Part shown: positions 8,001 through 19,966 of the stretch, piece after piece
Layout of the letters: the number at the start of each line of letters is the position of its first letter
How positions within the stretch are numbered: position 1 is the stretch's first letter
Assembly (NCBI GenBank): GCA_965218785.1
Contig: OZ244650.1
Location: forward strand, 1,728,001-1,792,000
Length of the DNA: 64,000 bases
Source: Nitrosopumilus sp.
Lineage (GTDB): Archaea; Thermoproteota; Nitrososphaeria; Nitrososphaerales; Nitrosopumilaceae
Direction: 5' to 3'
Translations under genes and position numbers: made by a program
Notes under the pieces: model-generated
The model's input: only the letters and a program-made list of their open reading frames with translations
The model's database searches: none
What the model was told of the DNA's origin: nothing

Positions 8001-10753
8001 ATGATATCATCACAGGAATTGTCAGTTACAGTTGGGGCAAGATTGGAATAATCAGTTGTACTTATGAATACAGTCACAAGATCGTCTATTGGCATAATTG
8101 CGGGATCGGTGGTGTCCCGTACCGTTACTGTTTGCGTGTCAGTTGCCGCGTTTCCAGCAGAGTCTGTAGCAGTCCAGATTACCGTGGTGGCACCCGGTGG
8201 GAACTGTGCCGGTGCGTCATTTGTGATTGTAGGATTTGAATCTATAATATCTGTGGCAGTCGCAGAGCCGAGATTCACCGCGGTTCCAGGACATGTGACC
8301 TCTGCCTGCACGTCAGAGGGCACCGCAAGTGCGGGCGGTACGGTATCCTGAATTGTGATTGTCTGCGTGTCAGTTGCCGCGTTTCCAGCAGAGTCTGTCG
8401 CAGTCCACGTGACTGTGGTGGCACCCAACTGGAATGATGCTGGCGCGTCATTTGTAATGGATGGATTCGGATCAGTGTCATCGATGGCAGTTGCAGTACC
8501 GATGGATATGGTAGTGAGTGTACCAGTAGCTTCTGCAGTTATATCGTCAGGTACGGTAATTACAGGTGGCACAGTATCTGTGCCTGCATCATAAATCAGG
8601 ACATCGTCTATCTCCGTATCCTCAGATGTGTTGCTTGATATCGCATCAAATCTTATCTGAAACTGTGTACTGTGTGAATAACTGCTCAGGTCATACTCTT
8701 CCATGTGCCAAAGGTTGTCATCATCGGATTCATCGGCAGTAAATCTCTCAAGTATCTGCCACGTATCCCCTCCGTTATCTGAGACATATACTATGATTCC
8801 CTCCTGTTCTCGTGGGTCAGCTCCTATATCAACAAACCTGTAAAAACTCAGCTCCGGCTGGGTCATGGCAGCAAGATCAACGTGGTCTATCATTCTCAGG
8901 GTGCATGTGGAATCACAGTTGTCTGTTCCTGCCACGTTGTTGCCCGTATGGGAATCAGGAAAGGATCTGGTTGGATTGTCCCGTATCGACCACACGGTGT
9001 CTTTCTGACCAGTCGAGATCCATTGGGACAGATCCGTCTCAAAGTCATCTGAAAAGGAAGACACTGTATTTGGGACTGGGATATCAATGACAACACTGAC
9101 CACGGCTGTTCCGATCAGATCATCCTCGTTGGTTGCAGAGACTTTGATGGTATGAGACCCGTTTGCCAGATTTTCCAGCATCCACATCCAATTTGTAAAT
9201 ACACTCGACATGGAAGTGATGGTTGCCGGTTCAGAATATGGTGTGTTGTCGATTCTGAGCTGAATGTCATAGACATCACTGTTTCCCTCTTGTATGTAAC
9301 CAACTACAGATACGTTTGAAACTGGAAATGTCTGTCCGTTTAAGGGTTTGAGGATTCTCACCACCGGCGGCGTGTCATCTGCAATGCGCACATACAGTAC
9401 ATTTGAGGACGCTGATCTCTCATCTGCACTGTTTGCAAATATTCTAAAGTACATTTCATATCCGCCATATCTGTTATAATCCAGGCTGGTTCTAGTTTCA
9501 GATATGGTATCATGATGCTGCCACGAGACCGTGTCTTGGGATCGTTCCATTCTGTAAGATGTGATCGGCGTATCGGGGCTTGAAGGATGACTCCACGTAA
9601 AACGGATGATGTTGCCAGACAGCGTGTATGCCAGGTCGTCTATCGGGTCTGGCATGATAATCGGAGGTACCTGTCCGATAATTGACACTGTGCCCTCTCT
9701 TGTGTGCCCGGATCTTCCATCAGTTACTGAATATACTATAGAGTCAGATTCGGACGGGGTGTGGGTGGGCGTGTAGACCAGCCTTGCTGAATCCCCGTCG
9801 ATGTTTGGAATCTTTGTCCTCAGATTATTATGATCCAGAGTTCCCTTTGTCGGATTACTTACAAGATGGTATGTAAGATAATCCTTGTCAGTATCCACTC
9901 CAACCAGATTGATTGTGTGCGGCGTGTTGCCAGTTATTCTGATTGTCTGGTCTGGTGCGTTTGGAATCTGGTTTATTGTAGCATTGACACTACAGTCAAG
10001 TGAGGTCGTAGTTCCTGCAACAAAGCCGTCACTGCATTTTTTACCCATGTATCCCTCGTCTGCATCACCTGTAAAGACGGTGGCAGTGCTTGGGAAATTT
10101 ATCCATGAATCGTTCTGTTTTATTTTCATGTTTGTAAACTTGCTCATGGGAATTGTTGAATATCTGTCAGTTGCCGAAATAGTTCCTTCTATGCCGACTA
10201 GTCCAGAGTACACGTTATCTGCCCTAAGTGATAATCTGGCCAGGGATCGTGTTTGTTCAGGAGTGGTGACGGTTGTTTCAACTCCGATTCCCTTGTCCTC
10301 TATGATTACCGTGATATCCTCGCCATAGTCTACCCTTCCCAGTGATGAGAGGTTTTCCTGATATACGTCATCACCCAGTTCGTCAACATTATTTACTCCA
10401 TAGTATATGCTTGTTTGTGCAACGCATTCTGTGTCTCCGAATAACCCCACTCGGATCTCACCCCTTGTGATTCCGGATTCCATCCATTCGAAATTCTCAG
10501 TTCCTTCCGTTGGAGCGGCAGTCAACCACCCTGCTGATACTGCCCTGTCTGTGCAGGAATGTCTGTCAATGTACAAGTCGGGGGAATCCAACTGAAACTG
10601 AACTCCTTGGACGGGGGAAGAAGGATTTGTTCGAATTTGTGAATAACACTGTTCAGTAGGGCTACAGTCCGTTGCAAACGCATCCGGATAACTGGCAGAC
10701 AGTACAAAAAGTGCAGAGACTGCAAAAAATAATAACAAAAGATGTTTTCTCAT
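5012..10753 (-). CDS. Large secreted surface protein/adhesin (FN3, ~8 HYR-like repeats, Ig-like domains, NHL beta-propeller)
   Basis: 1913 aa with signal peptide; repeated DTTPPVIT..P.DVTAE...WTATD.SGN units; NHL repeats (ILVAD..N.RIQVFDLDG...FGS.GSGNGQF..P); two TPNGGTH Ig-like domains. Confidence 0.92.
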   Translation of the reverse strand: MRKHLLLLFFAVSALFVLSASYPDAFATDCSPTEQCYSQIRTNPSSPVQGVQFQLDSPDLYIDRHSCTDRAVSAGWLTAAPTEGTENFEWMESGITRGEIRVGLFGDTECVAQTSIYYGVNNVDELGDDVYQENLSSLGRVDYGEDITVIIEDKGIGVETTVTTPEQTRSLARLSLRADNVYSGLVGIEGTISATDRYSTIPMSKFTNMKIKQNDSWINFPSTATVFTGDADEGYMGKKCSDGFVAGTTTSLDCSVNATINQIPNAPDQTIRITGNTPHTINLVGVDTDKDYLTYHLVSNPTKGTLDHNNLRTKIPNIDGDSARLVYTPTHTPSESDSIVYSVTDGRSGHTREGTVSIIGQVPPIIMPDPIDDLAYTLSGNIIRFTWSHPSSPDTPITSYRMERSQDTVSWQHHDTISETRTSLDYNRYGGYEMYFRIFANSADERSASSNVLYVRIADDTPPVVRILKPLNGQTFPVSNVSVVGYIQEGNSDVYDIQLRIDNTPYSEPATITSMSSVFTNWMWMLENLANGSHTIKVSATNEDDLIGTAVVSVVIDIPVPNTVSSFSDDFETDLSQWISTGQKDTVWSIRDNPTRSFPDSHTGNNVAGTDNCDSTCTLRMIDHVDLAAMTQPELSFYRFVDIGADPREQEGIIVYVSDNGGDTWQILERFTADESDDDNLWHMEEYDLSSYSHSTQFQIRFDAISSNTSEDTEIDDVLIYDAGTDTVPPVITVPDDITAEATGTLTTISIGTATAIDDTDPNPSITNDAPASFQLGATTVTWTATDSAGNAATDTQTITIQDTVPPALAVPSDVQAEVTCPGTAVNLGSATATDIIDSNPTITNDAPAQFPPGATTVIWTATDSAGNAATDTQTVTVRDTTDPAIMPIDDLVTVFISTTDYSNLAPTVTDNSCDDIMPKHNAPDPFPLGPTMVTWTATDDSGNSDSTTHTVTIVDIAPPIIMAPVDVTAEVTCPGTTVDLGQPAYSDNYDPNPEITNDAPASFQLGTATVLWTATDSSGNTATDAQLVTIRDTVPPVITSVEDVIAEITGQLTPVSLVLPGTSENSCEVVTPTNDATGSFPLGDTIVTWSAADVSGNMAILTQRITIQDTTPPVITAPADVTAESTGILTAVSIGTATAIDVSGVTPTITNDAPDSFPLGDTTVTWSATDASGNTATIPQTVTIQDTTPPVITAPADVTAEITGIRTAVFLGMATATDIADPNPVIAKDAPDSFPLGDTTVTWSATDASGNTATIPQTVTIQDTTPPVITAPADVIAEYTDVLTTVSIGTATAIDVSGVTPTITNDAPDSFQMGDTTITWTATDASGNTATAIQSITIQDTTPPVITAPADVTAEYTDVLTTVSIGMATATDIADPNPKITNSASASFPLGDTLVIWTATDSSGNQAIDTQTITVQKTVPPITPLETITAAITNTSTPNGGTHTSADISYVVTFDESVTDFTRTDIDVSGTASVTSEGVHNFNELGDDGLIWTFSLDATSDGTLTVSIPPNVVMGADDSVNMASNTYTVTLDIFVPVATFQSSIDRLAGDFRYNRGIAVNSAHILVADTYNNRIRVFDLDGNFVSTFGNSYASGNGQFKKPFDITVTPTRILVADLANHRIQIFDLDGNYVDKFGKYGSGNGMLKFPTGITTTPTHIVVPDRSNNRIQIFDLDGNHVNTFGSRGSGNGEFHFPTGVTTTSTNILVADRNNHRIQVFDLDGNYLSKFGSRGSGNGQFYLPEKVTTTPAYILVADSRNDRIQVHDRDGNYISTIGSRGTGNDQFDRPAGITTNSTHMLISDIFNQRVQIYDLSPTVAITSDTPNGGTHNSNTISYTATFSEDVTDFAASDITVSGTASGGTPTVSNFAGTGTTYTFEVTATSGGTVTVSVPKLAASDAGHNFNRASDEYTVTVA

Positions 10754-11823
10754 CAGTTCATCATACTCTCAAACACCGGGATTAGTTCATCCAAGGTATG
10801 GTAAACCGAATTTACATACATGAGGGTATATTCATCAGGAGCGAAACCGATAGTAGTTTTATGGTAATTCAGATCGTTTCCGCCATCATAAGCATGAACC
10901 GTCTTGCCGTCTCGGGTCATCTCCCTAAAGCCGCCATAATTTCCACTTTGGGATTCTCTGCTTTCCCACAAGGTCTCTTTTATGTCTTCTATTTCATCAT
11001 ATGGAGTACTGCTGATTTTTGCAAGAGCAGTATAGCCATCTGAGTTTCTAAACAAGGTGTGATAAGTAGCACCAGGTTGCAGTACATAATCAATTGGAAC
11101 GAAATAATACTTTACATAGTGTACATTTCTACCCGACTTGTACTCTTCATACTCGGAGTTGGCATACAGCAACCTATACCCATCAAGAATATGCGCCGGC
11201 ATCCAGTCCTCAATGTATAATCCGACACCGGGATTCTTTGAATATTTTGTATGGGGCACGGATGTAAACGTGGTTGATCTGCTGGTCTCACCGCTTACAT
11301 CGCTACTGGGAAATACCAACTCGGCGCCCATTACTCTGTCATATATTGGGGGGCTTGGTGGGCTTCTCTGATGTGCTGGTGGATACTCCCTGCCGTCATC
11401 TACAAACTCTACAGTGGATGCAATGTTTAGTGTGACAGTTGTTATCTCTGAAACATCATCATCATCTGTATGGGCCTGTACCACATTAACTGACTCTCCG
11501 CCTATTTTCACGCTGTCTTGTACTGATACAGTATCCCGAAGATCCGAGTGCTCAGAGACTGATGCTGCCAGGGGCTCGGTGCTCTCAGCAACTAATATCC
11601 TCCACCCCTTCTTTTCGGCAGTCTTTTCTGATACACATGCAGGAGATCCGTTATCCCGAATCACCAGGACTCTATTCACTTTACACACCACGTCTTCGGG
11701 TAATACACCGGATTCTATCTGTTTTTTCGGAGATATGTAATCAGAGTAAGATGGCATGGTAATGCCTGAGAATAAAATTAATGATAATATCACACCTGTG
11801 AAAATGATCCCTGTTTTTTCCAC
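10753..11823 (-). CDS. Secreted hypothetical protein
   Basis: Signal peptide followed by a SPKKQIESGV.PEDVVC...PACVS..TA motif of the kind seen in Nitrosopumilus exported proteins; translationally coupled to the adhesin. Confidence 0.85.
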   Translation of the reverse strand: MEKTGIIFTGVILSLILFSGITMPSYSDYISPKKQIESGVLPEDVVCKVNRVLVIRDNGSPACVSEKTAEKKGWRILVAESTEPLAASVSEHSDLRDTVSVQDSVKIGGESVNVVQAHTDDDDVSEITTVTLNIASTVEFVDDGREYPPAHQRSPPSPPIYDRVMGAELVFPSSDVSGETSRSTTFTSVPHTKYSKNPGVGLYIEDWMPAHILDGYRLLYANSEYEEYKSGRNVHYVKYYFVPIDYVLQPGATYHTLFRNSDGYTALAKISSTPYDEIEDIKETLWESRESQSGNYGGFREMTRDGKTVHAYDGGNDLNYHKTTIGFAPDEYTLMYVNSVYHTLDELIPVFESMMN

Positions 11824-11892
11824 ACAATTGGATTTGTAACATACGATAAAAGAATTGTGATCAAATGTTCTGTCGGGTTATCGAGTGGTAAA

Positions 11893-13070
11893 TTAGACTA
11901 AATTTCCTCGGTAAAGGAAGGCATTTTGGATTAACGTAATCCACTTGTTCTTACCATCCACCTCGATCATTGAAGCCTGTGCTGGAATTTGACCTTTCAA
12001 TGCACCGTGTTTTTTAGTGAGATTGTAATATGCCTTCATACCATCAAGTATTGGGGTATCCATTTTCTTAAGACCTCTAAAGACTTTCTCACGCTCTCTA
12101 ATCTCACCATTTAGACGCCCCATTTTGTTATTATTGTCTAGGTCTCTTTTTCCTGCAATATGGATATGTCTAATATGTTTTGTTTGTTTACCAAACACCT
12201 TCCTGGAGGATTTCATGTATGCAGGAAGGCCATCAGTTACAAAATGAGAGGGAGATTTCCAGATCTGGGCTTTGGTCAGTTCCAGTAAAGAATCTGCATC
12301 ATCATGTTGGAACTTTGTCTCTGCCTGGTCTAATGCGATCCAATATCTGGAATCATCATCCATAGAGGCAAACAGGTACTTTTGATTTCCGACGATTTTT
12401 ACCCATACCTCGTCTGCCCTGACCCAGGCCTATCGCTGGTTCTTGGGACTATCTCGTTTAGGTAATTTGAAACCATAGCCAAATATTTTGCTATCCAATC
12501 ATAGATGGAGCTGTGATCAACGTCTATGCCCATCATCTCGAAATTACACTCAATGTCCCCGACGGACATTCCCTGATAGTACATTTGAATGGCTTGGGTT
12601 ATGGTTCTCTCGTCATGTCTCATTTTCTCAAATCCGAAATTGGCCGTAAATCTCCTCTCACAATCCAGGCATTTGAAAGTCTGGGAATTGTCTTTCTTGG
12701 TCTTTCTCATGCCCCATTTTTTGATATTGCCTGAATCGCAGAATTTGCAGATCTTGATTAATTCTCTCTCAATGATTCTGAACCCATCATGGCCAAAGAC
12801 GTTCTTTCTGACGTATTCCAATACTACCTTGATATGCTTGCAGTCTGCCCCCGGTCTGATGGTCTGGACATTCGCAGACTAGGCCATTATTGGTTTTGGA
12901 TATGATATAAAATTTTGAAGGGTCTGTCTGGACCCCACTTTGAATTTATCCATCCCTATCTGTGAGGCATGGTTTTCTTTTGACATGATCTGCCCTGCCC
13001 TCTCCTGCATTGCGTTTGTTGTAGGAACCGTCTTGGGTCTGTTTGTCATCCTGAGCGTTGACTTTGGATC
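11893..13070 (-). pseudogene. IS6-like DDE transposase pseudogene (archaeal type with N-terminal Zn fingers), frameshifted
   Basis: Fragments in different frames: DCKHIK (SWIM-like), CKFC..CLDC Zn ribbon, HTH VDHSSIYDWI, ADEVWVKI..KYLFASMD, VTDG, and NNNKMGRLNG where the expected catalytic E is G. Confidence 0.85.
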
Positions 13071-13238
13071 AGAGGCTACTTCCGGTATGATTGGTAGGAT
13101 GTATTTCAGAGCATAGAACTTGTCTGTATTGTTATATGAAAAGGCGGGCATTTCAAATTTCAGGTCAAAAATTCTAGAATTTGTGTATCATTGTGACGGG
13201 CCACTTTGGGCGGGGGTCGTGCCGGAGGTAGCGCTTGA

Positions 13239-13411
13239 TGCTGGAGGTAGAGCCTTTGTAGTGGATCCCTAGTGCTGGAGGTAGAGCCCTAGTGCTGGAG
13301 GTAGAGCCCTGGTGCTGGAGGTAGAGCCCTGGTGCTGGAGGTAGAGCCCTGGTGCTGGAGGTAGAGCCTTTGTAGTGGAGCCTTAGTGGAGGTGGAGCCC
13401 TAGTGCTGGAG
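13239..13411. repeat. Tandem array A1: 20-bp unit RGTGCTGGAGGTAGAGCCCT, 5 copies plus partials
   Basis: Direct read; full copies at 13271-13370. Confidence 0.95.
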
Positions 13412-13453
13412 TTTTGACATGAACTCTGGGAACAGGAGTCTTGAGTTGAACCC

Positions 13454-13514
13454 TGAGCCGCTATGGTATGATCTATGATATGAGCCGCTATGGTATGATC
13501 TATGATATGAGCCG
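13454..13514. repeat. Tandem array A2: 27-bp unit TGAGCCGCTATGGTATGATCTATGATA, 2 copies
   Basis: Direct read. Confidence 0.9.
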
Positions 13515-13568
13515 TGAGACATGAAATGAGCCGTGAGCCGTGAGATGAGCCGTGAGATATGAGTCATG

Positions 13569-13683
13569 AGCCCTCAAAGTTGAGTCCCCAAAGTGTAGCC
13601 CTCAAAGTTGAGTCCCCAAAGTGTAGCCCTCAAAGTTGAGTCCCCAAAGTGTAGCCCTCAAAGTTGAGTCCCTCAAAGTGTAG
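13569..13683. repeat. Tandem array A3: 28-bp unit AGCCCTCAAAGTTGAGTCCCCAAAGTGT, 4 copies
   Basis: Direct read. Confidence 0.95.
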
Positions 13684-13696
13684 ACCCCGGAGAGTT

Positions 13697-13828
13697 GTGA
13701 GCCGCCAGGACGTGAGCCGCCAGGACGTGAGCCGCCAGGACGTGAGCCGCCAGGACGTGAGCCGCCAGGACGTGAGCCGCCAGGACGTGAGCCGCCAGGA
13801 CGTGAGCCGCCAGGACGTGAGCCGCCAG
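13697..13828. repeat. Tandem array A4: 15-bp unit GTGAGCCGCCAGGAC, 8 copies plus a partial
   Basis: Direct read; copies are perfect. Confidence 0.97.
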
Positions 13829-13873
13829 ATATTTCCCGTGGTCTGAAAGTCCAAAGTGAGGCGGCGGCTTGTT

Positions 13874-14020
13874 CAAAATTTTCTCCAGAAAATTTTGGGG
13901 ATTGGTAGTCAGGCTTAGAAAAGCCTGACGGGGTGGTACAAGGACTCGTCAGAGTCCTTGAGAAAGATGTTGAAGTTCCGGAATCAGGTTCGTTTTTTTG
14001 AAATGACGAGGGTAATGCGA
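13874..14020. repeat. Conserved hairpin core module 1
   Basis: caaaattttct-cc-agaaaattttg; gtcaggctt..aagcctgac; caaggactc-gtca-gagtccttg; T-rich tail ending aatgcga. Confidence 0.9.
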
Positions 14021-14057
14021 AAGAAAATCTGAAAGCTGGCTTGTGATCCGTATGAAC

Positions 14058-14296
14058 AATTCATAAGCTACATAAGCATAATTCATAAACTACATAAGCA
14101 TAATTCATAAACTACATAAGCATAATTCATAAGCTACATATGCACAGATCATATGCTTCATATGCACAGATCATATGATCCATATGCACAGATCATATGA
14201 TCCATATGCACAGATCATATGATCCATATGCACAGATCATATGATCCATATGCACAGATCATATGATCCATATGCACAAATCATATGTTTCATATG
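14058..14296. repeat. Tandem arrays B1/B2: 22-bp AATTCATAARCTACATAAGCAT (~4 copies) then 22-bp CATATGCACAGATCATATGATC (7 copies)
   Basis: Direct read; B2 contains two CATATG palindromes per unit. Confidence 0.95.
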
Positions 14297-14458
14297 AAAA
14301 CCAGTGCTTAAATTAATTTATCATATGTTTCATATGAAATCAGAACAAAAAGTACATATCAGAAAATTTCAGTGCACACAAAATTCATCTTGCACACATG
14401 AATTTGAAGAATTAAATTCCAAGACTTTGGAAGAAATGGGGGATTCAGAAAGAGATTG

Positions 14459-14830
14459 TTTCAGGTCACGGTTTCCAGAATCTGCATGTTATTGTGATGG
14501 GTTGCTTTGGACTTGGGTCCGGCGGAGGTGGAACCCTGGTGCCGTAGGTAGAGCCTTTGTAGTGGAGCCTTTGTAGTGGAGCCTTGACATGAACTCTAAG
14601 AACAGGAGGCTTGAGCCTTGAGCCTTGACATGGGCAATGACATGAGCCGTGAGCCGTGGTATGAGCCGTGAGATGAGTCGTGAGCCCTACATGAGACGCG
14701 AGCCCTCAAAGAGGAGAGCCTCCAAAGAGGAGAGCCTCCAAAGAATAAAGCCCCGAAAGTGGAGGGCCCAGAAGTGTAGCCCTCAAAGTTGAGTCCCTCA
14801 AAGTTGAGAGCCACCAGGACGTGAGCCGTC
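14459..14830. repeat. Diverged second copy of the GAGCC-rich block (homologous to ~13158-13830)
   Basis: Same order of motifs: tttcaggtca..attgtga, ggtagagcctttgtagtggagcc, ttgacatgaactct..gaacaggag, tgagccgtgag, gtagccctcaaagttgagtccctcaaagt, ccaggacgtgagccg. Confidence 0.88.
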
Positions 14831-14879
14831 AATTATTTCGTGTGATCTTTGTGAAAATCTGAAATGGGGGGGGCTTGTT

Positions 14880-15030
14880 CAAAATTTTCTCCAGAAAATT
14901 TTGACGGGTTGGTAGTCAGGCTTTGGGAAAAGCCTGACGGAATGGTACAAGGACTCGTCAGAGTCCTTGTGAAAAATGTTGATGTTCCAGAATCAACTCG
15001 TCGTTTTGGTGTTTGTGAGGATAATGCGAG
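14880..15030. repeat. Conserved hairpin core module 2
   Basis: Same three hairpins as module 1; tail gatgttccagaatcaactcgtcgttttggtgtttgtgaggataatgcgag. Confidence 0.92.
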
Positions 15031-15088
15031 TTGAGATGCTGTGAGTAGACAGGAATGGTGGTTGTATCATACAGTGAATGCCGGTAAT

Positions 15089-15221
15089 TTTGTAGACAAT
15101 GCCTACAAACTTTGTAGACAATGTAGACATGTAGACATGGAATTGTAGACAATGTAGACAATGTCTACAAACTTTGTAGACAATGTAGACATGAGACATG
15201 GGGTTTACGTGAGACATGGGG
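15089..15221. repeat. Repeat block C: clustered TGTAGACA motifs in direct and inverted orientation
   Basis: About ten TGTAGACA/TGTCTACA/TGAGACA motifs. Confidence 0.9.
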
Positions 15222-15391
15222 AAAAATAACCAATATCCTCTAGGGTCAAGTGCCCTCTTCATGGATGTCCTGTCATGAAATAATTAGGTCGTTTTGATTG
15301 TAGGGTGTCTGGGGACCTGGTTCGGTCACGATCCGGCGTGTGGTTGGTTCATGACTTTCTCCCCTCCTCCAAGTTTTGTGTGTGTGGTGTA

Positions 15392-15508
15392 AGGCCCCCA
15401 GCGGGGGTCTGTAGGGGAATGGTACAAGGACTCCGTTAGGAGTCCTGAGAAAAGATGTTGAATTTCCTAGATTGGTTCGTTGTTTTGATGTTTGTGAGGT
15501 AAATGCGA
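15392..15508. repeat. Conserved hairpin core module 3 (diverged, stems preserved)
   Basis: aggccccc-agc-gggggtct replaces hairpin 2; ggaatggtaca then aggactcc-gtta-ggagtcct; tail ..tgtttgtgaggtaaatgcga. Confidence 0.88.
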
Positions 15509-15525
15509 AGAAAATCGATGTGCGT

Positions 15526-15583
15526 ATCTTTACAGACTTGAAAGATAATCTTTACAGACTTGGGGGATAATCTTTACAGACTT
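15526..15583. repeat. Tandem array D: 22-bp ATCTTTACAGACTTGRRRGATA, ~2.6 copies
   Basis: Direct read. Confidence 0.88.
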
Positions 15584-15677
15584 TATGATCTTGAAAGAAT
15601 ATTCTCTGTCATGTATGTTCGAATGTAAAAACCAACACTGTAATGCTTTCCATGACATTCTGTCATTATGCTTGATA

Positions 15678-15827
15678 CAAAATTTTCCCCAGAAAATTTT
15701 AACGGTTGATAGTCAGGCTTTTTTCAAAGCCTGACGGAATGGTACAAGGACTCGCCAGAGTCCTTGTGAAAGATGTTGATGTTCCAGAATCAACTCGTCG
15801 TTTTGGTGTTTGTGAGGATAATGCGAG
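15678..15827. repeat. Conserved hairpin core module 4
   Basis: Three hairpins; loop 3 is gcca; near-identical to modules 2 and 5. Confidence 0.92.
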
Positions 15828-15855
15828 CTGGACTGTTGTTCGTGAAAGATGCAAT

Positions 15856-16059
15856 ATGTCTGAAAAAACGTGTTTCTACTGTTGTTTTAACATGTTTAAC
15901 ATGTCTGAAAAAACCTGTCAAACGTGTTTCTACTGTTGTTTTAACATGTTTAACATGTCTGAAAAAACCTGTCAAACGTGTTTCTACTGTTGTTTTAACA
16001 TGTTTAACATGTCTAAAAAAACCTGTCAAACGTGTTTCTAATGTTGTTTTAACATGTTT
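15856..16059. repeat. Tandem array E: 54-bp ATGTCTGAAAAAACCTGTCAAACGTGTTTCTACTGTTGTTTTAACATGTTTAAC, ~3.7 copies
   Basis: Direct read; contains AACATGTT palindromes. Confidence 0.95.
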
Positions 16060-16135
16060 GGAAGAAGACATATCTGTTTGACAGATGTCATTGGTACTTT
16101 GGCGGTTCAATCCAGGCTGTCTTAAATTATTCCAG

Positions 16136-16260
16136 CGGTTGATAATCAGGCTTTTTTCAAAGCCTGACGGAATGGTACAAGGACTCGCCAGAGTCCTTGT
16201 GAAAGATGTTGATGTTCCAGAATCAACTCGTCGTTTTGGTGTTTGTGAGGATAATGCGAG
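16136..16260. repeat. Conserved hairpin core module 5
   Basis: Nearly identical to module 4 from cggttgata onward; lacks hairpin 1. Confidence 0.92.
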
Positions 16261-16288
16261 CTGAACTGCTGTTCGTGAAGATTGAAAA

Positions 16289-16445
16289 AAAGTACTTTTG
16301 TGGTCGGTATTCGACCCCTTTGTGGTCGATACAAATGTGGTCGAAAGTACTTTTGTGGTCGGTATTCGACCCCTTTGTGGTCGATACAAATGTGGTCGAA
16401 AGTACTTTTGTGGTCGGTATTCGACCCCTTTGCGGTCGGTACAAG
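16289..16445. repeat. Tandem array F: 55-bp unit containing three TGTGGTCG motifs, ~2.8 copies
   Basis: agtacttttg starts at 16291, 16346 and 16401 (period 55). Confidence 0.95.
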
Positions 16446-16508
16446 TCATCCAAGAACCCGTGCCAATTACCAGTCCAAAGCCTATGTGGGGGTGTCGGGT
16501 GGGAAGAG

Positions 16509-16585
16509 AGACACCGGAATTGCCGGTGTCTATGTTTTGGTTTTTTATTTTGATTCGTCGTTTCGATGTTTGTGAAGGAAATGCG
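16509..16585. repeat. Highly diverged core module 6
   Basis: Different-sequence hairpin agacaccgg-aattg-ccggtgtct followed by a recognisable tail ttcgtcgtttcgatgtttgtgaaggaaatgcg. Confidence 0.7.
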
Positions 16586-16616
16586 GGTGAATAATTTATT
16601 CGTGGAATTTTAAAAT

Positions 16617-16732
16617 GGTGCAAAAGAGGTCAGTTTCTGACTGAAAAGGAGTCAGTAGCAAGTGGGTCAAAGGTGCAAAAGGAGTCAGTTTCTGACTGAA
16701 AAGGAGTCAGTTTCTGACTGAAAAGGTCAGTA
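16617..16732. repeat. Repeat block G: 22-bp AAAAGGAGTCAGTTTCTGACTG, 3 copies plus partials
   Basis: Copies at 16622, 16677 and 16699; internal palindrome AGTCAG-TTT-CTGACT. Confidence 0.9.
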
Positions 16733-16959
16733 GTAAAAAGATGTGACGTAAATTAAGTCAGTATCTTGAATCATTCTGAAATAATGGACATGGAAGAAAC
16801 ACATAAAAAAATTACAACAGAAAACAAATTCGTCATTTATGAATGGTGTTAAAGTGATGAGCCGGGACTCGGCGGCTTGGATGGCTGGGATCGGGTCAGA
16901 ATACCTGCAAACACGGGAATAAGAAATAATACGGCAGAGATGATGACTAGTTAAGTCCA

Positions 16960-17166
16960 TCATGAAATATCTTTGTTTGAATCAAGAATTATTTTTCGGA
17001 CTTTGTTTTGATGGGCTAGTAGGTCTTCCCTGAATTTATTCAATTCGCTGCCCATCTCATCAAATTTTTTTAAGAAATTTTTATAGTCATTGTAAGACAG
17101 TGTAACCTGTATTGATTTGTTTTCAAGGTTCTCTGTATCGTGAACTGAAAAGGTTTGATTATTCAT
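16960..17166 (-). CDS. Small hypothetical protein (coiled-coil)
   Basis: 68-aa ATG ORF divergent from the 17217 gene, with plausible composition. Confidence 0.6.
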   Translation of the reverse strand: MNNQTFSVHDTENLENKSIQVTLSYNDYKNFLKKFDEMGSELNKFREDLLAHQNKVRKIILDSNKDIS

Positions 17167-17216
17167 AAAGATACTACGAAGGAATTGTATTTCTACTAGT
17201 ATGGTGTATAGTTAGT

Positions 17217-18605
17217 GTGGAGTATAAACGGGTGGCAAAGCAAAAGGATATTTGTAATTTCCTCAAAGACCGAGGTTCCAGCAAACGAGTGGATATTATG
17301 AGATACATGACAGAGGACATTAAAGAATCCAAGATCAGTTCGGTATCTGAAACAACTGCAAATAACTGGATTAATATCATGAAAAAAGCCGGGGAAATAA
17401 AACACAGGGGGGATAAATACTACATTCCAAAACCAAAAAATACAAAATCCAAGAGTCAAAATATCTTAAAATCACAAAAATATGATCAACTAGAAAAAAC
17501 ACAAGAAAAAATCCCGGTTGTTGCTGATTTTACCACAACAACAAAAGAACATGCTGTTCTCGCAGAATCACTACAAGATACCTTCTTTTTACTAGACGCT
17601 GCCATGTACCTGCTTGATAGCATACAGATGGATGACATTCGCGCAAGAGAGATAAAAGATAAGTCAAGATATCATTGCAGGATATTCAAGGCTTCAATTG
17701 AGAAAATCATAAATGAGAGATTTGTGCATCTGCTAGAGCCATGCCAGAACAAATACCGAGAATCAATAGAAACAGCATGGAACCAATATTCGGAAAAACA
17801 GGTACATCCTGCAAGAATGGTATTTTCCAAAATTAGCGACTTTAGACACGCATTTTCTGACGTTATCTTGCAGATGCGCCAGTGTTGCGAGAATAACTGT
17901 AAAAGATTTGCACGATATGAGACTGATTACAAAGACGCGGTTTACACGTCATGTAAACTGATATCAACATCACTAAATGAAATATGTAGAAACGACTATG
18001 ATCTGGTTGTTGATTCTTATGAATATGACGACAGGTTGGGATTTTTTACAATCAACATATCCGAACTTGAAATGTTGTCATCTTATGCCATTACACAGGT
18101 TTACTGTAATGGAAAATACTGCACCTTTGTGATTAATGATGGGAATAACACAATCACGCCATCAGACTCTGATTATGCAATTTCGTTTTATCCTGATAGT
18201 GAGACAGGTGATTCCTCAAAGAATACCGTTAGCATAATGCTTGGATGCATAGAGTTTTCATTCATCATTAATGGAAAGCATGGCATTTCCATATTCCAGG
18301 ATCACATAAAACAAGATATCGTACAGTTGGATTCAGTTTATCCGCAATCCAAATCAGACACCATGATGCTGACCCCCGGGAGGGAGGGAGGGGAGATACA
18401 AGACAGGATAGAATCACTTTATGGGAAAAAATTTGTCTGTTCATATTGCGGCAAGGAGCATCCATGTAAACTATGGATGGGGCACCCCCACGAAAATGGG
18501 ACATCAGACAAGGACGATAAAAAATACTGGATGATGATAAAATGTCAGAATAGCGGCAACTACGTTTCATTACAGCAGATTCTCAATGGAATTATTAAGG
18601 AATAA
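17217..18605 (+). CDS. Hypothetical protein with N-terminal winged HTH and C-terminal Cys/His (Zn-finger-like) domain
   Basis: ICNFLKDRGSSKRVDIM...SETTANNWINIMKKAGEIKHRGDKYYI fits a wHTH pattern; CSYCGKEHPC...C near the C-terminus. Confidence 0.8.
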   Translation: MEYKRVAKQKDICNFLKDRGSSKRVDIMRYMTEDIKESKISSVSETTANNWINIMKKAGEIKHRGDKYYIPKPKNTKSKSQNILKSQKYDQLEKTQEKIPVVADFTTTTKEHAVLAESLQDTFFLLDAAMYLLDSIQMDDIRAREIKDKSRYHCRIFKASIEKIINERFVHLLEPCQNKYRESIETAWNQYSEKQVHPARMVFSKISDFRHAFSDVILQMRQCCENNCKRFARYETDYKDAVYTSCKLISTSLNEICRNDYDLVVDSYEYDDRLGFFTINISELEMLSSYAITQVYCNGKYCTFVINDGNNTITPSDSDYAISFYPDSETGDSSKNTVSIMLGCIEFSFIINGKHGISIFQDHIKQDIVQLDSVYPQSKSDTMMLTPGREGGEIQDRIESLYGKKFVCSYCGKEHPCKLWMGHPHENGTSDKDDKKYWMMIKCQNSGNYVSLQQILNGIIKE

Positions 18606-18612
18606 TCCAATG

Positions 18613-19776
18613 TCAGGTAGGTCCGGTCTTTGTGACAAAAACCCTGTCAACTACATCTCTTAGTGAATCATACTTGTCATCTATCCTGTCTAGTCTGTTT
18701 TGCAGTGATTGATTCTCACGCTCAAGTTCTCCCATTTTTTTATCACTGACTGTAATCTGCTGCTTCAATTTTCCTCTCAACTCATATGATTCAGATATGA
18801 CAAGATGTGGTACTGCCTTGCAATACTGCTCAATCAAATAATCCTCAGATGGCTTGTAATAGTTTTCGGCGTGACCCATGATCTTTTCAACATCAAGTGT
18901 CTTCATTGCACGTTCTGCATTTGTCTTGAAATATTTGCGAAATCCATGAATCTGCTTAAAGTCATATCTTTTCTTTACGTCTTCTCGCATGTTGATCTTT
19001 TTAAGAAATCTTCCCATCATGTTGGCAATGGTTTTTGATGTTACCGGTTTGGCAATCCTTGGATCTTTTGGCCTGCTTTTGCGGTATGTGTTATTGTCCC
19101 ACGCATCACGAATTAACGGTGAACTTGCAGTAATGTCCTCACCCGCTGCTTTTCTTGCATTGATGTATTGCTGTATTACGCCATGACATTCGGATGTTAC
19201 AAATGTTGTATACTGCTCGTTGTCCCCCCGGTATACTAGAATCTTGGCACCGATCAGATTATCCGGATCTTGTATTGGTGTGATATCGCCGTATGTCATA
19301 CCCTCAAATGCGCCAACACGGATGCCGGATGTTGCACAAATCAGTATGACGCACCTGGTTCTAAGATCAGCCGAATCTATCATGAATCGTATCTCGTCTA
19401 TTGATGGCGCCCTGTCATTTCCTGTCTTTTTTGCATGCGGTATCATCTTGGATATCTTTAGCCAGTTTATGCCTGATTCAACGTCATTCATCTCAAAAAA
19501 GTGTCGTAGCGCGCCCTTTGAAAGCTGCAAAGTGGAGCCACTGACCTCGTTTTTTCTGTCTTCTATGTAATCAATTATGATGTTTTGTGTTTTACGTGGA
19601 GATCTCTTTGACATTAGTAATAGCTTGTCAGGCATCATATCACAGTAATTCAAAAAATATGACAGTTTTTTAGAATAAGTCTGCTTTGTTGATTCTGTGT
19701 GAAATCCCTTTAGAAAATTTTGTATGGATCTGCAATCAAACAATTCATTTGGAATTTCTATTTTGGATTTTTTCAT
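18613..19776 (-). CDS. Tyrosine recombinase/integrase
   Basis: Catalytic motifs SGIRVG (R), K, HGFRK (HxxR) and MGH..NYY; abuts the 3' end of tRNA-Leu. Confidence 0.95.
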   Translation of the reverse strand: MKKSKIEIPNELFDCRSIQNFLKGFHTESTKQTYSKKLSYFLNYCDMMPDKLLLMSKRSPRKTQNIIIDYIEDRKNEVSGSTLQLSKGALRHFFEMNDVESGINWLKISKMIPHAKKTGNDRAPSIDEIRFMIDSADLRTRCVILICATSGIRVGAFEGMTYGDITPIQDPDNLIGAKILVYRGDNEQYTTFVTSECHGVIQQYINARKAAGEDITASSPLIRDAWDNNTYRKSRPKDPRIAKPVTSKTIANMMGRFLKKINMREDVKKRYDFKQIHGFRKYFKTNAERAMKTLDVEKIMGHAENYYKPSEDYLIEQYCKAVPHLVISESYELRGKLKQQITVSDKKMGELERENQSLQNRLDRIDDKYDSLRDVVDRVFVTKTGPT

Positions 19777-19834
19777 TTTTCTCTATATTTTAGTAGAATA
19801 TGGGAAATAATAAGTATTTCCACACGGATTGTAG

Positions 19835-19919
19835 TGCGGGAGATGGGATTCGAACCCACGAACTCCTAAGAGATAGGGTCCTAAGCCCTACGCCTTTGAC
19901 CAGGCTGGGCGACTCCCGC
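19835..19919 (-). tRNA. tRNA-Leu(UAG)
   Basis: GCGGGAG acceptor stem, anticodon loop CTTAGGA, long variable arm, GTTCGAATCC T-loop. Confidence 0.97.
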
Positions 19920-19966
19920 AACGAATCTCCCATTAAACACAAATTTATCTATTATTACACAATATT

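Follow-up and report, generated by a model that had tools for sequence, protein, structure and literature searches.

The array and its genomic setting

The window analysed here is a 64,000-nt stretch of a Nitrosopumilus sp. genome (G000). It holds about 3.6 kb without a credible gene, as a first-pass annotation of the same DNA had stated; the longest open reading frame through this array (15790–16623, minus strand, 277 aa) has no counterpart in a homologous array in another species (G343), where the only ORFs are of 88 and 92 aa. Downstream lie the gene for P0001 (17217–18605, plus strand, 462 aa), a tyrosine integrase gene (18613–19776, minus strand; PF00589, E = 1.2e-7, 32.1 bits with a cut-off of 27.1) and a tRNA-Leu(tag) gene (19834–19919, minus strand). 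The 3′ 17 nt of the tRNA gene (19834–19850) are one copy of a direct repeat, GTGCGGGAGATGGGATT, the second copy of which is found at G000:C1:1716494–1716510, and host synteny in three relatives jumps from 1716513 to 1747834 (G000:C1). The array belongs to a 31.3-kb island in tRNA-Leu and sits at the end that carries the integrase gene. IS copies adjoin the array, and the island, a mosaic that includes IS copies, could be in decay.

The neighbours named in the first-pass annotation, a winged-helix gene and an integrase at a tRNA, were thus recovered, the former by structure modelling. The P0001 model has a winged-helix N-terminus followed by a helical bundle, a beta domain and a C-terminal Cys/His cluster (AF2 pLDDT 65.8). 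P0001 belongs to no Pfam family and gave no Foldseek match at E ≤ 0.001; five homologues were found among 5.8 billion proteins.

The array stretch is present in Logan contigs of four runs from three studies, with no single contig spanning it. Two of the runs (X2 and X3) lack 62 bp (15103–15164) within one of the repeat blocks described below (block 2).

Six structured cores on one strand

Scanning with R1, a covariance model built here, revealed six multi-hairpin cores of ∼165 nt on the plus strand between 13865 and 16594. They fall at all six positions where a repeated core had been noticed before (∼13874, 14880, 15392, 15678, 16136 and 16509). Core 1 (13865–14028; 165.9 bits, E = 7e-41) has a minimum free energy fold with hairpins H1, H2 and H3 and a closing helix, H5. 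Core 2 (14871–15037; 186.1 bits) and core 4 (15669–15834; 183.0 bits) score highest. Core 3 (15341–15516; 101.9 bits) is without H1 and, in the alignments, has GGCCCCC/GGGGGTC in place of H2; core 5 (16104–16267; 156.1 bits) is also without H1, and the diverged core 6 (16433–16594; 56.8 bits, E = 1e-12) has GACACCGG/CCGGTGTC in place of H3. A conserved UGUGAGGUAAAUGCGA box forms the 3′ end of the core.

The fold of the core is strand-specific and backed by covariation. Among 15 cores, double changes were seen at 19 of 35 pairs and 88.8% of cells were paired, as counted in an alignment fitted to the covariance model itself; none of 500 shuffles reached the observed level, and slid controls gave at most 11 double-change pairs. 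G-U pairs recur in the core (at one pair, U-G is found in 12 of 13 sequences), and the fold is therefore open to the plus strand only. We infer that the core acts as a plus-strand structure, in the form of either RNA or single-stranded DNA. Such cores are rare: R1 matches were found in 4 of 151 genomes of the genus, one of them weak, a strict core pattern found no metagenome contigs, and no Rfam family matches the core.

Unlike repeat blocks follow the cores

Each core is followed, after a gap of 10–54 nt, by its own tandem block, which confirms the earlier description of a constant unit joined to a variable one. All blocks are given on the plus strand. Block 1 (14044–14296) consists of 22-mers, five copies of AATTCATAAGCTACATAAGCAT (CATAAG type) and then 7.3 copies of CATATGCACAGATCATATGATC (CATATG type), and block 2 (15091–15191) is a TGTAGACA/TGTCTACA cluster. 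Block 3 (15526–15583) has 2.6 copies of the 22-mer ATCTTTACAGACTTGAAAGATA. Block 4 (15866–16059) is a 54-mer repeated 3.6 times (98% matches; an orthologous 53-mer ×2.9 in G343), and block 5 (16289–16444) a 55-mer repeated 2.8 times (98% matches; ×2.1 in G343) with TGTGGTCG three times per unit. Block 6 (16614–16733) is made of 22/55-mers containing AGTCAGTTTCTGACT (a 55-mer ×3.9 in G343). When the blocks were compared by Smith-Waterman scores against 200 shuffles, the sole likeness was that between the two halves of block 1 (z = 6.4); the 20 other pairs gave z ≤ 2.3. Judged by their sequences, the blocks resemble protein-recognition arrays of differing specificity, as had been proposed.

Cores 1 and 2 are in addition preceded by two homologous GAGCC-rich blocks, which were absent from the first-pass description. 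Block A (13219–13828, plus strand) is composed of several short tandem families with periods of 7–28 nt and GAGCC in each unit (TRF), and block B (14508–14812, plus strand) is its homologue. Both are strictly polar, with GAGCC:GGCTC counts of 24:0 over 13200–13835 and 14:0 over 14505–14835. Homologues of block A also occur at 378 kb, 1474 kb and 1519 kb of G000:C1.

A strand-specific structure that uses G-U pairs would suit a small structured RNA, and the cores could be read as RNA genes in the regulatory circuit of an ICE (integrative-conjugative element) with iteron-governed promoters, by which the island would sense or interfere with ICEs. TATA-like elements are found at suggestive places: (A)ATTATTTC or ATATTT lies ∼45–50 nt 5′ of H1 in the units with GAGCC blocks, and CTTAAATTATTC (16121), of the type seen at AbrB-type genes, lies ∼25 nt 5′ of H2 in core 5, an arrangement matched in G343 (L058 11165). 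Cores 3, 4 and 6, however, have no recognisable promoter, the T-run inside the loop closed by H5 would be likely to stop archaeal transcription before H5 forms, and the absence of an Rfam match also speaks against this reading. No RNA run was among those holding the locus. We consider the RNA-gene reading improbable.

Intact units in related genomes

The anatomy of the array is homologous to that of intact modules of ICE-like elements, in which the order is polar short repeats, core, element-specific iterons, TATA and an AbrB/MazE-fold gene. One such unit in G343 (L059) has a short GAGCC block, a core (157.4 bits), a 44-mer repeated 5.3 times (9629–9862), a TATA and an intact gene for a 105-aa protein that matches PF04014 (25.9 bits, cut-off 24.7). 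Its iterons carry the motif of block 3, ATCTTTACAGACTT (95% identity matches), and the linker between core and block is common to both units. The L059 unit converges with a gene for a 1041-aa protein with TrwB_AAD_bind and TraG-D_C domains, and near it are genes for a ParM-like protein, a prepilin peptidase, a VirB4-like protein (P-loop_TraG, AAA_10, DUF87) and a T2SSE ATPase. The ParM-like gene, 4 kb from the unit, is not part of an operon that includes the AbrB-type gene. Only block 3 could be matched to a cognate intact unit; blocks 1, 4, 5 and 6 were seen outside the window only in the gene-less array of G343, and block 2 was seen nowhere else.

Two further units in a third genome (L071 and L074 in G384) combine a core and differing iterons with the gene of an AbrB-type protein and, at 64% and 61% identity, a TraG-like C-terminus. 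Across 401 genomes of the family, we surveyed 13 loci where AbrB-family matches were strong. A convergent TraG/VirD4-like gene was complete at six loci, partial at three and missing at four, two of which are cut by contig ends. Proximal tandem repeats were present at 8 of the 13, with a different unit in each. The three complete units described above are L100 and L101 of this set, and L074. Five further loci of this set have a same-strand upstream element that R1 scores as core-like (L103, E = 1e-9; L107, 9.5e-5; L105, 1.4e-3; L109, 2.6e-3; L104, 0.029), with GC-rich, fully compensated hairpins and the 3′ box kept. A TATA-like element begins at −26/−27 of all four intact AbrB-type genes, and the TraG-like proteins are modelled with a C-terminal MarR-like winged helix. 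No relaxase or HUH family was found among 25 ORFs of G343 681–741 kb run through Pfam, a part of the ORFs of at least 90 or at least 200 aa listed there.

Two probable traces of such genes remain in the array. After block 1, an AbrB-type remnant (14334–14576, plus strand) has a TATA-like element at −26 and an N-terminus, MKSEQKVHIRKFQ, that resembles the intact genes by eye before it diverges. The conserved right flank (16735–16852, plus strand) holds a 22-codon ORF (ATG 16784, MDMEETHKKITTENKFVIYEWC), probably the 5′ remnant of another AbrB-type gene; homology with G343 stops at TTTATGA in both genomes.

The first-pass annotation had taken the array for a stack of captured replication origins, the blocks being iterons for the Rep initiators of various plasmids or viruses. 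Periods of 22, 44, 54 and 55 nt, near multiples of the helical turn, do resemble iteron origins when combined with hairpins, and the modelled winged-helix protein P0001 is encoded next to the array. But the intact units lie directly 5′ of an AbrB/MazE-fold gene and tail-to-tail with a TraG/VirD4-like gene, and no Rep or primase gene adjoins any of those examined. The expected single core-plus-block units in mobile elements do exist; their neighbours are AbrB-type and TraG-like genes instead of rep or primase genes. Moreover, neither Pfam nor fold comparison links P0001 to initiators, the G343 array is without a P0001 homologue, and no non-coding tandem arrays lie near remote P0001 homologues in four other genomes. 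This makes the origin reading highly improbable.

A second array and degenerate units

In G343, the cores of the array are joined to blocks 1′ (a related 22-mer block after the orthologous core, L058 10609–10756), 4, 5 and 6, and the array lies beside a different integrase (23% identity) at tRNA-Ile. Kept in the same arrangement are core 4, the 54-mer, core 5, the 55-mer, block 6 and a 125-nt flank, at 74–94% identity. Core plus block 3 sits outside that array, within the ICE-like element. Block content and order thus differ between species, as the first-pass annotation had anticipated. Degenerate units were found at 280 kb, 1474 kb and 1519 kb of G000:C1 and at 575 kb of G343, the last beside a 59-aa TraG fragment.

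Such sites raise the question of whether the array is inert debris, left without present function after ICEs had integrated repeatedly at tRNA sites and then undergone deletion and core-core recombination. The two truncated AbrB-type genes, the degraded or diverged cores 3 and 6, the adjoining IS copies and the copy number differing among samples would all fit. Against this stands the conservation of a multi-unit gene-less arrangement at a different integrase and tRNA, and the compensatory changes that keep the hairpins paired. Deletions would also have had to strip every gene yet spare six core-plus-block pairs. The tandem units are 96–100% alike within blocks, which argues against debris as well, although this could reflect recent slippage instead of selection. 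On balance, we find this explanation unlikely.

Probable role of the array

Because the intact units precede an AbrB/MazE-fold gene and face a TraG/VirD4-like gene, the best interpretation of the iteron blocks is that AbrB-type proteins of ICE-like elements use them as operators or recognition sites. We propose, at about even chances, that the array is a set of six captured gene-less cis modules from several ICE lineages, most likely serving as trans-dependent recognition sites. The native module would comprise the one-stranded short-repeat block, core, element-specific iterons, TATA and gene for a ∼100-aa AbrB/MazE-fold DNA-binding protein, tail-to-tail with the coupling-ATPase gene of TraG/VirD4 type, and the cognate AbrB-type protein would bind the iterons. 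Six specificities were probably gathered through recombination between homologous cores, and the protein genes were presumably lost apart from two 5′ remnants. The machinery of a helper ICE, of whichever lineage is present, may then transfer the island or maintain it after excision, as happens with staphylococcal plasmids bearing two to three different oriT mimics. Several findings weigh against this proposal. In G000 itself, tblastn (E ≤ 1e-3) gave no TraG-like gene, and of its six PF04014 matches none, hence no AbrB-type gene, lies in the island; the genome has no helper element. The failure to find a relaxase or HUH family among the ORFs scanned, the restriction of cognate intact units to block 3, the rarity of the core and the possibly decaying state of the mosaic island also count against it.

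The same sites could work in the opposite sense, and the array may enable a genomic island to borrow, or jam, the machinery of several conjugative elements. When ICE lineages enter the cell, the stacked iterons would titrate their AbrB-type proteins, and the GAGCC blocks might do so with their coupling ATPase, so that the entering elements would be misregulated or excluded and the host or the resident island protected. In plasmid biology, cloned or extra copies of iterons or partition centromeres exert incompatibility. The iterons of intact units lie right at the promoters of AbrB-type genes, and extra copies would therefore compete for the autoregulator; the genome also holds six recognition sets with neither cognate protein genes nor a TraG-like gene. 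Yet iterons alone would suffice as decoys, whereas a 165-nt core with compensated hairpins is kept in all six units and in the G343 array, and each block has few units (2.3–7). A decoy is accordingly somewhat unlikely in our view. The earlier ideas of a satellite, a decoy and a record of integrations survive, each in modified form.

Relation to known systems

In iteron-regulated plasmid origins and in type II/III partition centromeres (parC-ParR, tubC-TubR), iterons with helical-turn spacing lie at the promoter from which a small DNA-binding protein is expressed. The units described here share tandem helical-turn iterons at such a promoter, and a ParM-like gene lies near one of them; they differ in having no adjoining Rep gene and an extra strand-specific hairpin core.

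A close layout is that of the pWBG749 family oriT, described by O'Brien et al. (2015; PMC4652767) as a conserved core with hairpins and accessory repeats that lies directly 5′ of the small specificity gene smpO. In the same account, non-conjugative staphylococcal plasmids carry two to three oriT variants, some beside truncated smpO. Common to both systems are a core with hairpins and repeats directly 5′ of a conjugative element's gene for a small beta-sheet DNA-binding specificity protein, the collection of variants of differing specificity, some by a truncated specificity gene, and recombination between sites, which is probable here. The staphylococcal protein is ribbon-helix-helix and its variable part one inverted repeat, whereas here the host is archaeal, the protein has an AbrB/MazE fold, a long block of tandem iterons forms the variable part, and six units are stacked on a chromosomal island with no relaxase family among the ORFs scanned. 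For thaumarchaeal ICEs, Krupovic et al. (2019; PMC6563490) also report no relaxase and suggest transfer of dsDNA, so that a bacterial-type oriT may be absent from these elements.

For dsDNA transfer, the cis-acting clt locus of Streptomyces conjugative plasmids offers a parallel in its 8-bp direct repeats, which the account in PMC4447253 describes as recognised by the TraB translocase. There, many direct copies of a short motif are bound by the C-terminal DNA-binding domain of the pumping ATPase; here, the GAGCC blocks are direct repeats in one orientation only, and the TraG-like proteins have a modelled C-terminal winged helix. Compared with that description, the ATPase is VirD4/TraG-type by Pfam instead of FtsK/TraB-type, and the GAGCC block is parted from its gene by core, iterons and AbrB-type gene.

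CRISPR and integron arrays differ in that their constant element is a 25–40-nt repeat or an attC site, compared with a 165-nt structured unit here, where the variable parts are tandem repeats without an ORF and the window has no associated cas or intI genes. As in those arrays, constant and variable elements alternate, apparently through serial capture.

Organization of the array

The region from 12600 to 17400 of the window was read directly, repeats were identified using Tandem Repeats Finder and a repeat finder, and cores were located with R1, a covariance model of the ~165-nt multi-hairpin core. R1 located six cores, all on the + strand and with scores from 186 down to 57 bits, at 13865-14028 (core 1), 14871-15037 (core 2), 15341-15516 (core 3), 15669-15834 (core 4), 16104-16267 (core 5) and 16433-16594 (core 6). 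A tandem block lies 10–54 nt past each core and is different every time: 22-mers of the CATAAG type and then of the CATATG type (block 1), a TGTAGACA cluster (block 2), a ATCTTTACAGACTT 22-mer (block 3), a 54-mer (block 4), a 55-mer (block 5) and AGTCAGTTTCTGACT 22-mers (block 6). None of the variable blocks is derived from another: when they were scored against each other, one of the 21 pairs rose above shuffled sequences, namely the two halves of block 1 (z 6.4), and all others had z ≤ 2.3. These results confirm the first-pass annotation, which had described six conserved hairpin cores, each followed by a different, unrelated repeat block.

Two mutually homologous blocks that were absent from that description are located at 13219-13828 and 14508-14812. 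They consist of several short tandem families with GAGCC in every one, and the motif is strictly one-stranded, with GAGCC:GGCTC ratios of 24:0 and 14:0 in the two blocks, 26:0 elsewhere, and 0:33 and 0:4 in units on the opposite strand. As these blocks precede cores 1 and 2, units 1 and 2 are ~1-kb relatives with the order GAGCC block, core, variable block.

The array had been described as containing no credible gene, and this held. The 277-aa minus-strand ORF that crosses it lacks an equivalent in the array of G343, a genome of another species with a homologous array, and comparison of the ORFs with that array gave no conserved ORF. The GC content over the array is 0.40–0.53 in 1-kb windows. 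A CRISPR array was ruled out, as the constant unit is ~165 nt long and each variable part is itself a tandem repeat, spanning 58–253 nt. An integron was ruled out as well, as the units have no conserved ORF and the integrase, at a tRNA att site, belongs to the general PF00589 family only.

The stretch is present in Logan contigs of four sequencing runs from three studies, no RNA run being among those listed; none of these contigs spans the array, and they are fragmentary in the repeats. In two of the runs, 62 bp of the TGTAGACA block are missing. Contig joints at 14035/15639, 13256/14577 and 13445/14657 (runs X1, X3 and X4) skip 1.2–1.6 kb between units; several have short sides, and some contain foreign letters, such as the joint from 14035 to 15639, seen in X1 and X4, with 25 of them. 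The joints may represent population variants of the array or paralogous loci. The spacer after block 2 (15225-15275) is 90% identical to G384:C1:633791-633841 (locus L061, ~9790-9840), where no core adjoins it.

Structure of the core

Single-sequence folds gave three hairpins, H1-H3, and a closing helix, H5, in which YUCGU pairs with GCGAR. Covariation was counted over 15 cores from three genomes in an alignment fitted to R1 itself; in this alignment 88.8% of the cells are paired, and 19 of the 35 pairs carry changes on both sides. None of 500 shuffles reached this level, and slid controls gave at most 11 double-change pairs. The covariation is seen in H1-H3 and in H5. The closing pair of H5 is C-G in six sequences and U-A in six, which accounts for the AATGCG that the first-pass annotation had noted as conserved. 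Since G-U pairs are recurrent in the core, only the + strand is able to form the structure. The box UGUGAGGUAAAUGCGA at the 3′ end of the core is kept across genera.

An array of RNA genes is a live alternative reading of these structured repeats. At the gathering threshold, Rfam returned three tRNAs from the window and nothing else, and E ≤ 1 added only sub-threshold miRNA-type hairpin matches on palindromic repeats; any Rfam RNA family is thus ruled out at the gathering score.

Intact units in ICE-like elements

With the whole array as the BLAST query, only G343 and G384 matched among 151 genomes of the genus besides G000, the window's own genome. R1 matched four of the 151, one of them weakly. 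At 711 kb in G343 we found a unit comprising, in order, a short GAGCC block, a core, 5.3 copies of a 44-mer with the block 3 motif, a TATA box and the gene for a 105-aa PF04014 protein. This unit is convergent with the gene for a 1041-aa TraG/VirD4-like protein, and a ParM-like protein, a prepilin peptidase, a VirB4-like ATPase and a T2SSE ATPase are encoded nearby. Two further complete units in G384, at 882 and 487 kb, carry other iterons, of the GTGCATTTAGTGCA type and the ATGCATA type, and both converge on TraG-like genes (64% and 61% identity). A Cas4-Cas1 fusion gene (L099 17072-18745) lies ~27 kb from the ICE-like unit of G343.

The array had previously been interpreted as a stack of iteron-type replication origins. 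This interpretation is not upheld, as the neighbors of the intact units are AbrB-type and TraG-like genes and not a Rep gene. The support that had been named for it, single core-block units next to rep or primase genes in free elements, was found in part: single units do occur in ICE-like elements, but the intact ones examined do not lie beside such genes. The segment 15664-16740 had no match in plasmids and phages (blastn, distant setting).

A complete convergent TraG-like gene is present at the extracted loci L059/L100 (G343), L071/L101 (G384), L103, L105, L107 and L112, and a TraG-like C-terminus at L074 (G384); all seven have the AbrB-type gene. The L059 protein scores 25.9 bits against PF04014 (MazE_antitoxin, SpoVT/AbrB; gathering cut-off 24.7), and an AbrB-type protein at 378 kb in G000 scores 24.5 bits with hmmscan and 25.1 in the genome search against the same cut-off of 24.7. 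In four of four intact AbrB-type genes a TATA-like element starts at -26/-27 from the ATG. This spacing is consistent with leaderless mRNAs as in archaea, and it means that the iterons lie at the promoter. A type III toxin-antitoxin system, with a tandem-repeat RNA antitoxin, was ruled out, as the downstream gene has a TATA box of its own and encodes a DNA binder of the AbrB fold, and as some of the repeat sequence is palindromic. Small PF04014 genes elsewhere in G343 and G384 (10 regions) lie outside the module, with no tandem iterons upstream.

By its Pfam domains, TrwB_AAD_bind and TraG-D_C, the coupling ATPase is of the VirD4/TraG type. The TraG/VirD4-like proteins share a conserved C-terminal extension (L059 8264-9265, L071 2170-3171, L074 2-952). 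In the predicted model, which is good only at fragment residues 140-334, a MarR-like winged helix precedes a domain of alpha-beta-beta-beta-alpha-beta order. The Foldseek matches were weak, the best being MarR-type winged helices (E 1.3e-3), with weak nuclease-like matches besides. The predicted winged helix is suggestive only, and the second domain could be nuclease-like.

Putative gene remnants in the array

In the window, block 1 is followed by a TATA-like element at -26 and then by an ORF starting MKSEQKVHIRKFQ. By eye, this start resembles the intact AbrB-type N-termini; the ORF diverges afterwards. After block 6, ~125 nt are conserved with G343 as far as TTTATGA, and we read the 22-codon ORF in this flank as another 5′ remnant of an AbrB-type gene. 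An AbrB-type TATA, CTTAAATTATTC, is found before core 5, ~25 nt upstream of hairpin 2, in both G000 and G343; in the window it lies near 16121, and further TATA-like elements lie near 13830 and 14824. TraG-like genes are absent from G000, and of the six PF04014 matches in that genome none lies in the island that holds the array.

In a second gene-less array, located in G343, a GAGCC block is combined with cores that carry blocks 1′, 4, 5 and 6, so that block content differs between genomes. It adjoins a different integrase (23% identity) at tRNA-Ile.

The island and its right flank

To the right of the array lie P0001 (462 aa, no Pfam family), a tyrosine integrase (PF00589, E 1.2e-7), tRNA-Leu (19834-19919) and a conserved phosphoglucomutase gene. 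Conserved DNA begins at or beside tRNA-Leu in 30 of 30 other genomes of the genus, and in three relatives the DNA adjoining the tRNA is the counterpart of G000:C1:1716513. Copies of a direct repeat of 17 nt, GTGCGGGAGATGGGATT, lie at 1716494 and at the 3′ end of the tRNA. The synteny of the relatives and this repeat pair define an island of 31.3 kb with the array at its integrase end. The att pair of the window was recovered via synteny with relatives only; exact 11-mers gave no att repeat within the window and L058, a locus in G343, and a search for the border of the G343 island found none.

The island has a mosaic make-up: besides the array it contains two histidine-kinase/response-regulator pairs, IS fragments and a 1913-aa HYR/NHL surface protein. 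The two copies of the kinase-regulator pair are at 617-2249 of the window and at L065 4535-6177. Two multi-copy elements adjoin the left side of the array. The one at 11867-13060 has weak DDE and HTH ORFs and is 65–76% identical to many sites in G000 and other genomes of the genus; the one at 10628-11865, with a 356-aa ORF, matches G000:C1:1904534-1905772 at 88%. The gap from tRNA-Leu to the phosphoglucomutase gene is 1–4.4 kb in at least six genomes of the genus (G391, G361, G195, G291, G279 and G337; relatives of window 19935-19965), a pattern suggestive of another hot spot for insertion, this one 5′ of the tRNA.

P0001 has five homologues and no initiator-like Pfam or fold match; Foldseek against pdb gave nothing at E ≤ 0.001. 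A search with the alignment of its homologues detected no related loci in three collections, and no non-coding arrays lie near remote homologues in four genomes.

Distribution of the module

A profile of four AbrB-type proteins (E ≤ 1e-5) matched 37 of 401 genomes of the family, and we examined the neighborhoods of 13 strong-match loci. The convergent TraG-like gene is complete in six, partial in three and missing from four, two of which end at contig ends. Proximal tandem repeats occur in eight of the 13, with a different unit in each. In four, a long short-period block lies distally; it is of the GAGCC kind in one and consists of 17-, 18- and 19-mers in the rest. At another five loci, one of which is from a different genus, R1 run with its filters off detected a core-like element upstream in the same orientation (E 1e-9, 9.5e-5, 1.4e-3, 2.6e-3 and 0.029). 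The hairpins of these copies are GC-rich and fully compensated, and the UUCGU...UGUGAGGUAAAUGCGA end is kept.

By BLAST, the core was found in none of 200 family genomes outside G000 except for one 27-nt match to hairpin 1. A strict core pattern occurred at three loci in two records among genome contigs and nowhere in metagenome contigs, and a hairpin-3 pattern had no match in viral contigs.

Possible function and known counterparts

The array is homologous to the modules of ICE-like elements, and from this anatomy we infer a mechanism in which cognate AbrB-type proteins would use the iterons as recognition or operator sites and the stack would consist of cis modules captured from several ICE lineages. 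Among documented systems the closest is the pWBG749 oriT family, in which a small specificity gene, smpO, is preceded by hairpins, accessory repeats and a conserved core; there are also non-conjugative plasmids with two to three oriT variants, some beside a truncated smpO (PMC4652767). Read as stacked trans-dependent recognition sites, the array would belong to a known kind, with the archaeal host and the components being new. In the Streptomyces clt, the TraB translocase binds direct repeats of 8 bp (PMC4447253). The GAGCC blocks resemble clt in being polar, with multiple direct copies of one short motif; they differ in that the ATPase here is of the VirD4/TraG type, whereas that of clt is of the FtsK/TraB family.

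A bacterial-type oriT, or a mimic of one, would agree with hairpins beside a conserved core sequence on one strand, and with the conjugation genes and small accessory DNA-binding gene that adjoin the parent units. However, 25 ORFs of G343 681-741 kb run through Pfam included no relaxase or HUH family, and in the available text of Krupovic et al. (2019; PMC6563490) no relaxase and no oriT is identified for thaumarchaeal ICEs or Sulfolobus plasmids. The helper element is also absent from G000, and an intact cognate was found for block 3 only. In a more specific scheme, which we regard as rather unlikely, the core and its flanking repeats would form a cis-acting transfer locus of archaeal conjugative elements: polar GAGCC-type repeats would load the VirD4-like ATPase via its C-terminal winged helix, the strand-specific hairpin core would end in a processing site, and the iterons would be read by the AbrB-type specificity factor. 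Under this scheme the array would act as a mimic with multiple specificities, through which its integrase-bearing island could ride six ICE lineages, the first archaeal hitcher element of its kind. Decoy titration by the stacked array and inert debris are both live alternatives.

The module bears on how archaeal conjugative elements pick and process the DNA they transfer, as it provides a concrete, conserved and testable cis element by a coupling ATPase gene, with a new structured element and matched protein-iteron pairs. If the stack works in trans, elements consisting only of recognition sites that borrow helper machinery would extend from bacteria to archaea, and the six specificities would be a natural panel for binding and mobilisation assays. 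If it is only debris, it still records ICE lineages that passed through the host lineage. Among the papers listed on archaeal integrative and conjugative elements with AbrB and VirD4, none describes such a module, and the available main text of Krupovic et al. (2019) contains none of the terms ‘AbrB’, ‘tandem repeat’, ‘non-coding’, ‘origin of transfer’ and ‘iterons’.

Other copies of the module

A relative of the module at 378 kb in G000 has a GAGCC block of 33 copies, a ‘type B’ core, 2.7 copies of TGCACAAAA and an AbrB-type gene, and degenerate copies lie at 1474, 1519 and 280 kb. The type B core, to which R1 is blind, is preceded by the same GAGCC block and by the beginning of hairpin 1, and occurs at G000:C1:377441-378891 (L007), at G000:C1:1473739-1474373, and at 454.7-455.3 kb and 5.9-6.3 kb of G343:C1. 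The intact AbrB-type gene at 378 kb converges on a gene for a 288-aa protein starting MTVRQLYYQLVSRNIV, which is not TraG. At 835 kb in G384 a solo core without iterons or AbrB-type gene is flanked by a small ORF on one side and by one that is RelE/ParE-like by eye on the other (L060 9030-9190, 10068-10385). The degenerate unit at G000:C1:280300-280550 (L079 1400-1650) has GAGCC remnants and a 71.4-bit core and is devoid of iterons. A tRNA-gene look-alike, recognized by eye, lies ~300 nt away on the other strand (L079 ~1935-2010); the unit may be a scar left by another integrated element.
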